Shown in pieces: positions 3,529-3,544 of a DNA stretch of 64,000 bases (its first letter is position 1; every line of letters starts with the position of its first letter). The stretch comes from Escherichia coli (GTDB taxonomy: Bacteria; Pseudomonadota; Gammaproteobacteria; Enterobacterales; Enterobacteriaceae). The notes beneath the pieces are model-generated. The model worked only from the letters and a program-made list of their open reading frames with translations, was not told the DNA's origin and made no database searches. The DNA is taken from assembly GCF_001677475.2 (NCBI RefSeq), contig NZ_CP015229.1; one strand, 5' to 3'. Both the position numbers and the translations under genes were made by a program.

Positions 3529-3544
3529 TGGCGTAAATCTTGCC
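3529..3544 (+). promoter_or_regulatory. candidate sigma54 (-24/-12) promoter upstream of xdhA: TGGCgtaaatcTTGC
   Basis: GG and GC elements at the canonical 10-nt spacing, about 90 nt upstream of the xdhA start; found by eye, not scored. Confidence 0.4.

Follow-up and report, generated by a model that had tools for sequence, protein, structure and literature searches.

The sigma-54 promoter of xdhABC in Escherichia coli and a conserved upstream site pair as candidate target of the activator YgeV

The -24/-12 element located between actS and xdhA in the Escherichia coli DNA studied here, a stretch of 64,000 nucleotides which we refer to as the window, is a real sigma-54 promoter of xdhABC, first published in 2010 and listed in EcoCyc. 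The evidence as a whole is, with high probability, best explained by a sigma-54-dependent xdhABC promoter whose putative activator is YgeV, acting through two upstream sites that we term A and B. The modest new element is a predicted DioR-type enhancer motif upstream of the E. coli genes xdhA, ygeW, ygfK and ygfT, for which we found no prior publication. The genes and elements around the promoter are the following:

Positions 3397-3408, + strand: site A, TATCACATTGAT, candidate YgeV site and exact match to TATCA-N3-TGA[GT], centred at 3403 (about -152)
Positions 3419-3430, - strand: site B, TATCAATATGAG (CTCATATTGATA on the + strand), candidate YgeV site, centred at 3424 (about -131)
Positions 3479-3495, + strand: island C, TTTTTAACGTCATCACA, downstream of sites A and B and upstream of the promoter, at about -76 to -60
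Positions 3528-3544, + strand: sigma-54 -24/-12 promoter element CTGGCGTAAATCTTGCC, a 17-mer in the register of the ChIP-seq studies
Positions 3600-5897, 5908-6786 and 6783-7262, + strand: xdhA, xdhB and xdhC, from open reading frames and the RefSeq annotation of strain 042
Positions 7302-9080, - strand: ygeV, a sigma-54 activator (enhancer-binding protein), from its GAFTGA and Walker A motifs, C-terminal helix-turn-helix and Pfam domains

The core of the promoter, TGGCGTAAATCTTGC, occupies positions 3529-3543 of the + strand; its GG is at 3530-3531 and its GC at 3542-3543, and the original prediction of a sigma-54-type GG/GC pair at the canonical TGGC-N7-TTGC spacing is borne out within the 17-mer. 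TGGC and TTGC are exact consensus matches and the GG and GC lie ten bases apart, as in the pattern TGGCAC-N5-TTGC; the departures from the usual motif are G at the fifth position (usually A), T at the sixth (usually C) and a C following TTGC where A or T is common. When scored with a weight matrix built from 38 intergenic sites bound in ChIP-seq (Bonocora 2015, PMC4591121, Table 1), with the four sites of the window left out, the xdhA site yields 11.97 bits and ranks 5 among the 127,968 window positions, and Bonocora's own matrix assigns it 10.93. The training sites span 7.9-20.9 bits, most of them scoring at least 13.4, and with 12.0 bits the xdhA site is a below-average match near the low end of this range. 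Scores above that of the xdhA site also occur at 58200-58216 (- strand, 13.1 bits), 14277-14293 (+ strand, 12.5 bits) and 55550-55566 (- strand, 12.1 bits), and the genes around 14277 (hyuA and yqeA) are missing from Bonocora's tables.

Sigma-54 control of xdhA was already known from several lines of evidence. Zhao, Liu and Burgess (2010; PMC2831329, Table 2) printed the xdhA promoter as tttcTGGCGTAAATCTTGCCTGctta, the same sequence as in the window, and reported a 4.9-fold increase of xdhA mRNA five minutes after sigma-54 induction and a 2.1-fold decrease in an rpoN deletion. In Table 1 of Bonocora 2015 (PMC4591121) the 17-mer is the ChIP-seq peak OS29 of strain MG1655, with a fold-above-threshold of 11 and a flag 'C' denoting experimental confirmation in EcoCyc, and xdhA is among only five of Zhao's 22 candidates that were confirmed by ChIP-seq. 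Between K-12 MG1655 and the window there is no difference in the motif or anywhere in the four conserved islands described below; the 13 differences in the aligned 473 nt, which comprise the spacer and the first 61 nt of xdhA, all fall outside them. The published E. coli promoter and the window site are thus the same object, with no difference in the elements themselves. The prediction that xdhABC is under sigma-54 is upheld by OS29 and by the responses of xdhA mRNA to sigma-54 induction and rpoN deletion; its accompanying remark that such control was not firmly established does not hold, since the sigma-54 promoter was published in 2010 and 2015 and YgeV was proposed as activator in 2023, and the promoter as originally stated adds nothing new. 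For an in vitro genomic SELEX with sigma-54 holoenzyme, the table passages available to us record recovery of the ygeV/ygeW spacer and contain no xdhA-upstream entry.

The 501 nt around the motif match strains 042, PCN033 and others at 100% identity. Over the long stretches 1-25000 and 40000-43000 of the window, comparison with 5,426 complete E. coli genomes gives a best identity of only 98.3-98.4%, whereas 3200-3700 is matched at 100% in several strains; the window seems to represent either a lineage with no close representative among those genomes or a mosaic.

Comparison with other genera was made possible by YgeV orthologues. Searching with the E. coli YgeV protein gave E. coli clusters only, and an Enterobacter orthologue used as query led to diverse genera; a scan of a genome collection with YgeV was dominated by the shared ATPase domain and returned one enterobacterial locus, that of Enterobacter sp. 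Bisph1, together with clostridial loci. The xdhA upstream regions of E. coli, Citrobacter amalonaticus, Trabulsiella odontotermitis, Atlantibacter sp. and Pseudocitrobacter corydidari were aligned, and they share four conserved islands in otherwise unalignable DNA, for which the proportions of columns invariant over the five genera are:

Island A, positions 3397-3408: TATCAnAnTGA(G/T), 75% of columns
Island B, positions 3419-3430: (C)TCAnnnTGATA, 67% of columns
Island C, positions 3479-3495: TTTTTAAnnnCATCACA, 61% of columns
Island D, positions 3526-3545: TTCTGGCGTAnnTnTTGCCT, 80% of columns (16/20)

Invariant columns make up 0-12% of the non-coding DNA between the islands, the values beside island C being 0-10% and those beside the promoter element 10-12%, and the promoter of every xdhA orthologue in the five genera scores 11.1-12.6 bits with the sigma-54 matrix. 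Islands A and B coincide with sites A and B, which repeat one motif in inverted orientation, the distance between their centres being 20-21 bp in the five genera (21 bp in the window). In all five, site A lies 125-127 bp and site B 105-107 bp from the -24 GG, which places a candidate inverted enhancer pair in the region where the original prediction proposed to look for one, and both sites carry the exact core within the range of 80-300 bp upstream of the -24/-12 element by which YgeV/DioR-type enhancers are predicted. In contrast to these fixed enhancer-to-promoter distances, leader length, measured between the -12 GC and the ATG, ranges between 40 and 57 nt over the five genera; an activator that works by looping requires a constant geometry of this kind even where the sequence has diverged.

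Island C may be a T-rich tract or the site of a bending protein. IHF was considered here and set aside, given that its consensus WATCAANNNNTTR was matched, with two mismatches, in only one of the five genera. The island also includes a TCACA half resembling a CRP site.

The site is intergenic and directed at xdhA, and its distance from the gene depends on which start codon is used. The true start is probably ATG 3600, which yields the 765 aa annotated by RefSeq for strain 042, and not the K-12 ATG at 3639 (752 aa): ATG 3600, the N-terminal peptide and the reading frame are conserved in the five genera, Trabulsiella and Pseudocitrobacter have CTG in place of the ATG at 3639, and a Shine-Dalgarno-like GAGGGG at 3588-3593 precedes ATG 3600, with purine-rich sequence in the other four genera. 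The originally proposed separation of about 90 nt from xdhA fits the K-12 start (96 nt) and fails for the conserved ATG 3600, which is 57 nt from the -12 GC. By the rule of Bonocora 2015 (PMC4591121), which adds 19 nt to the motif centre, a centre at 3536 predicts transcription initiation at about 3555 (3554-3556), some 45 nt 5' of ATG 3600. The distance of 84 nt listed in the same study (PMC4591121) reaches from 3555 to the K-12 start codon at 3639, and the mapping from K-12 to the window is therefore exact.

The motif of sites A and B recurs in the window at the other sigma-54 promoters of the cluster:

Positions 9236-9247, + strand: TATCAATATGAG in the ygeV-ygeW spacer, with more copies at 9139-9150 and 9265-9276; the ygeW sigma-54 promoter (OS30) is at 9450-9466
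Positions 18904-18918, + strand: perfect palindrome TTATCATAATGATAA, upstream of the ygfK sigma-54 promoter (OS31) at 19086-19102
Positions 34275-34286, + strand: 12-mer as at site B, between ygfT and uacT, some 190 bp upstream of the sigma-54 site that serves ygfT
Positions 34093-34109, - strand: ygfT sigma-54 site (Bonocora OS32)

The 12-mer CTCATATTGATA has four exact copies in the window, located upstream of xdhA, in the ygeV/ygeW and ygfT/uacT spacers and inside ygeY, against an expectation of 0.21 even with one mismatch allowed. Exact matches to TATCA-N3-TGA[GT] occur at eight places in the 64 kb, six of them within the four spacers in which ChIP-seq places sigma-54 sites; these spacers account for 2.55% of the window, and 0.04 matches are predicted for them by resampling. 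In the ygeV-ygeW spacer the motif is found at the same position in 11 of the 11 genera examined, and Enterobacter, Kluyvera and Cedecea have sites related to the ygfK palindrome upstream of their own ygfK. The ygeW, ygfK and ygfT promoters resemble that of xdhA in being bound in ChIP-seq, in carrying the same upstream motif and in belonging to the YgeV iModulon (see below). They differ from it in the placement of the motif, at about -190 to -235 as compared with -131 and -152 at xdhA, and the ygeW spacer additionally carries a conserved CRP-like site.

Other candidates for the xdhA upstream sites were rejected. The best matches to a Fur box were 11-13/19 and lay away from the conserved positions, and an inverted repeat TGATACGTATCA / TGTTTCGTATCA overlapping site B, the only result of the repeat finder, is not conserved in the other genera.

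A closely similar arrangement has been described for Clostridiales, in which Nie, Dong and Yang (2019, BMC Genomics, PMC6615313) computationally reconstructed a DioR regulon with the enhancer motif TTATCA-N3-TGATAA. Their regulon comprises dpaL, ygeW-ygfK-ssnA-ygeY, yqeB and hyp-xdhABC, and the sites in their supplementary table include ATTTATCATAATGATAAGG and TATTATCATTTTGATAATA; the E. coli ygfK site with its flanks matches the first of these, from C. botulinum, in 18 of 19 bases. DioR and YgeV are alike in being sigma-54 activators encoded beside dpaL/ygeX, ygeW, ygfK, ssnA, ygeY, yqeB and xdh genes, and both the DioR regulon and the enterobacterial cluster show TTATCA-N3-TGATAA-type motifs upstream of -24/-12 promoters. 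There are also differences. The DioR reconstruction was computational and covered Firmicutes only, with E. coli lying outside it (Nie 2019, PMC6615313), and identity between the clostridial xdh genes and E. coli xdhA is only about 29%. Moreover, the enterobacterial sites at xdhA, ygeW and ygfT have a conserved asymmetric TGAG half, unlike the DioR palindrome: relative to the 15-mer TTATCA-N3-TGATAA, site A has two mismatches and site B four, with TGAG at site B in place of the palindrome's TGAT.

Firmicute homologues of YgeV show 36-38% full-length identity and adjoin homologues of ygeX, ygeW, ygeY, ygfK, ssnA and xdh genes, and at these loci three to four perfect copies of TATCA-N3-TGATA stand a short way upstream of the strong sigma-54 promoters that the homologous operons carry. 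Thus in Sedimentibacter, downstream of the YgeV homologue, the motif occurs at 11852, 11972 and 11991, followed by a 20-bit sigma-54 promoter at 12135, and in Clostridium thailandense four copies at 8995-9139 precede a 19-bit sigma-54 promoter at 9242. YgeV and the clostridial homologues share the helix-turn-helix segment LGIGIATLYRKIK without any change; since it also occurs in a clostridial paralogue (L004) with no motif nearby, the segment is consistent with a shared specificity and does not discriminate.

As had been noted in the original prediction, which called it the only sigma-54 activator gene of the window, ygeV lies convergently just downstream of xdhC, which ends at 7262. It is the only open reading frame of the window with a GAFTGA motif; residues 260-590 of YgeV match sigma-54 activator families, at scores below every curated cutoff. 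The gene order is actS, xdhABC, ygeV on the opposite strand, ygeW-ygeX-ygeY-hyuA-yqeA, yqeBC, mocA and ygfK-ssnA-ygfM-xdhD, with ygfT and uacT further along. The adjacency of ygeV and xdhABC is found in the five genera of the alignment, whereas in six of the ten enterobacterial genera other than Escherichia, namely Enterobacter sp. Bisph1, Kluyvera, Intestinirhabdus, Cedecea, Pluralibacter and Raoultella, ygeV and ygeWXY-hyuA-yqeA are present with no xdhABC adjacent, such that xdhABC appears as an optional add-on to a core ygeV cluster.

Published expression data group several of these genes together. Lamoureux 2023 (PMC10602906) defined a 'YgeV iModulon' in which xdhABC, ygeWXY, ygfK and ygfT are co-expressed, noted sigma-54 promoters upstream of xdhABC and ygeWXY, and cited an earlier study, known to us through this citation, in which ygfT expression was lower in a ygeV mutant. 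A 2022 preprint (doi 10.1101/2022.07.24.501321) repeats that anaerobic urate consumption needs ygeV. YgeV has also been renamed IsrR in the context of indole and virulence, in a paper with no xdh or DNA-binding content, and in the literature we found no report of YgeV binding DNA or of xdhA expression in a ygeV mutant. Control of xdhABC by YgeV, the second half of the original prediction, has nevertheless gained a conserved YgeV/DioR-type site pair at a fixed distance from the promoter, and the link is strongly supported by the comparative evidence while falling short of proof. The N-terminal domain of YgeV contains three cysteines (C84, C87 and C93) and a VAGTG motif that are invariant from E. 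coli to Clostridia, and their conservation suggests that the cysteines may hold a metal or redox cofactor in a sensor domain.

A sigma-54 closed complex needs an ATP-hydrolysing activator that is bound upstream and makes contact through a DNA loop. At xdhA, the sigma-54 RNA polymerase occupies 3528-3544 (Bonocora 2015, PMC4591121) and the level of xdhA mRNA follows that of sigma-54 (Zhao 2010, PMC2831329). In the mechanism that we propose, YgeV would be the activator and would bind the inverted TATCA-N3-TGA(G/T) copies at about -152 and -131 which, being 21 bp apart, both lie on one helix face; from there it would contact the sigma-54 holoenzyme by looping, with the T-rich island C plausibly aiding the bending of the loop, and transcription would start near 3555 to give the leader of about 45 nt. 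YgeV and the same type of site would also serve the ygeW, ygfK and ygfT promoters, so that the whole would constitute one purine/urate catabolic regulon. The textbook example of an enhancer-dependent sigma-54 promoter is glnAp2 with its activator NtrC. It resembles the proposed arrangement at xdhA in its -24/-12 element, in a pair of activator sites that share a helical face at a distance of more than 100 bp upstream, and in looping, but the activator and the sequence of its sites differ; YgeV, unlike NtrC, has no receiver domain and carries the cysteine-containing N-terminal domain and a PAS-like region.

Three other explanations were weighed against this mechanism. That the xdhA motif is a chance GG/GC match with no function is extremely improbable, and is refuted by the published ChIP-seq data together with the conservation. 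Judged on sequence score alone such a view would have some basis: the loose pattern TGGC-N7-TTGC occurs five times in the window as compared with 4.0 expected, and is uninformative, and Markov-1 random sequences of 64 kb contain 7.0 matches scoring at least as high as the xdhA site, so that the weight-matrix check proposed with the original prediction returned a score that is by itself not above background. The same per-position rate, however, predicts only about 0.02 matches for the 412-nt actS-xdhA spacer when the correct strand is counted, and the score falls within the range of sites bound in vivo, with position and conservation supporting function. ChIP-seq occupancy of the exact site (PMC4591121), rpoN-dependent expression (PMC2831329) and near-invariance over five genera in diverged DNA all tell against chance, and the motif, while not significant on its score, is significant in the context of its spacer, conservation and ChIP-seq signal. 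A further possibility is that sigma-54 polymerase is poised or non-productive at the site, and that xdhABC is transcribed mainly from some other, unrecognised promoter. Bonocora 2015 (PMC4591121) stresses that binding is not proof of promoter activity, the matrix score is modest, and the microarray effect of rpoN was only about 2-fold, under non-inducing conditions (PMC2831329). Yet a search of the actS-xdhA spacer for sigma-70-like promoters gave one weak match against 1.5 expected, and none above chance, xdhA expression follows sigma-54 both up and down (PMC2831329), and the maintenance of motif, enhancer pair and spacing in five genera would be hard to explain if the site were inert; we consider this reading very unlikely.

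It is also unlikely, on balance, that the promoter is genuine and served by another activator, either NtrC under nitrogen limitation or one encoded outside the window, with the TATCA-N3-TGA sites binding a different protein. Purine catabolism releases nitrogen, many E. coli sigma-54 promoters depend on NtrC, and an NtrC SELEX peak has been reported inside xdhB-xdhC; in the published work we found no experiment that links YgeV to xdhA. No NtrC-type site, however, was seen among the four conserved islands, the conserved upstream motif is the same as that at the other promoters of the cluster and beside the Firmicute YgeV homologues, and in expression data xdhABC groups with the ygeV-linked genes (PMC10602906). 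The explanation that we prefer, and regard as likely, is that YgeV directly activates xdhABC via the pair at 3397-3430, and that this pairing of activator and site is common to Enterobacteria and Clostridia and operates at no fewer than four E. coli promoters (xdhA, ygeW, ygfK and ygfT).

If this is true, the anaerobic purine/urate cluster has kept its regulator and cis-elements across phyla, and what is useful here beyond the known promoter is the regulatory logic of a gut-relevant urate/purine degradation cluster. The enzymology of this cluster was reportedly worked out only in 2023-2025, and to our knowledge there is still no published DNA site or ligand for YgeV of E. coli. The conserved pair, two 12-bp sites whose distance from the promoter is fixed, offers a precise and cheap experimental handle on regulation by YgeV.

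Several minor features were observed at the sister promoters and within the cluster. The CRP-like site of the ygeV-ygeW spacer, TGTGATCAACCCCACACA, lies at 9392-9409, and its TGTGA half is invariant in 11 genera, as is part of the opposite half; it agrees with a 2025 paper (PMC12507026) that describes a native Crp site in this spacer and repression of urate degradation by glucose. The sigma-54 sites of ygeW (CTGGCACAGTTATTGTT, 9450-9466) and ygfT (TATGCCCATTTATTGCA, 34093-34109) each differ from K-12 at a low-information position, where K-12 has C at position 9 and G at position 8, respectively. Upstream of ygfK a second element, GAGTGATTTTAATTCTCAT at 18975-18995, is conserved in E. coli, Kluyvera and Cedecea; it has ATGAGAATTA in common with the ygeW site and may be a further variant of the YgeV site. 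Finally, two copies of the motif are intragenic: the exact 12-mer at 12297-12308 in ygeY, within the codons for D-A-H-I-D-T-V, and the palindrome TATCATCTTGATA at 11081-11093 in ygeX, and these may be due to chance, be driven by the coding sequence or constitute internal YgeV sites.
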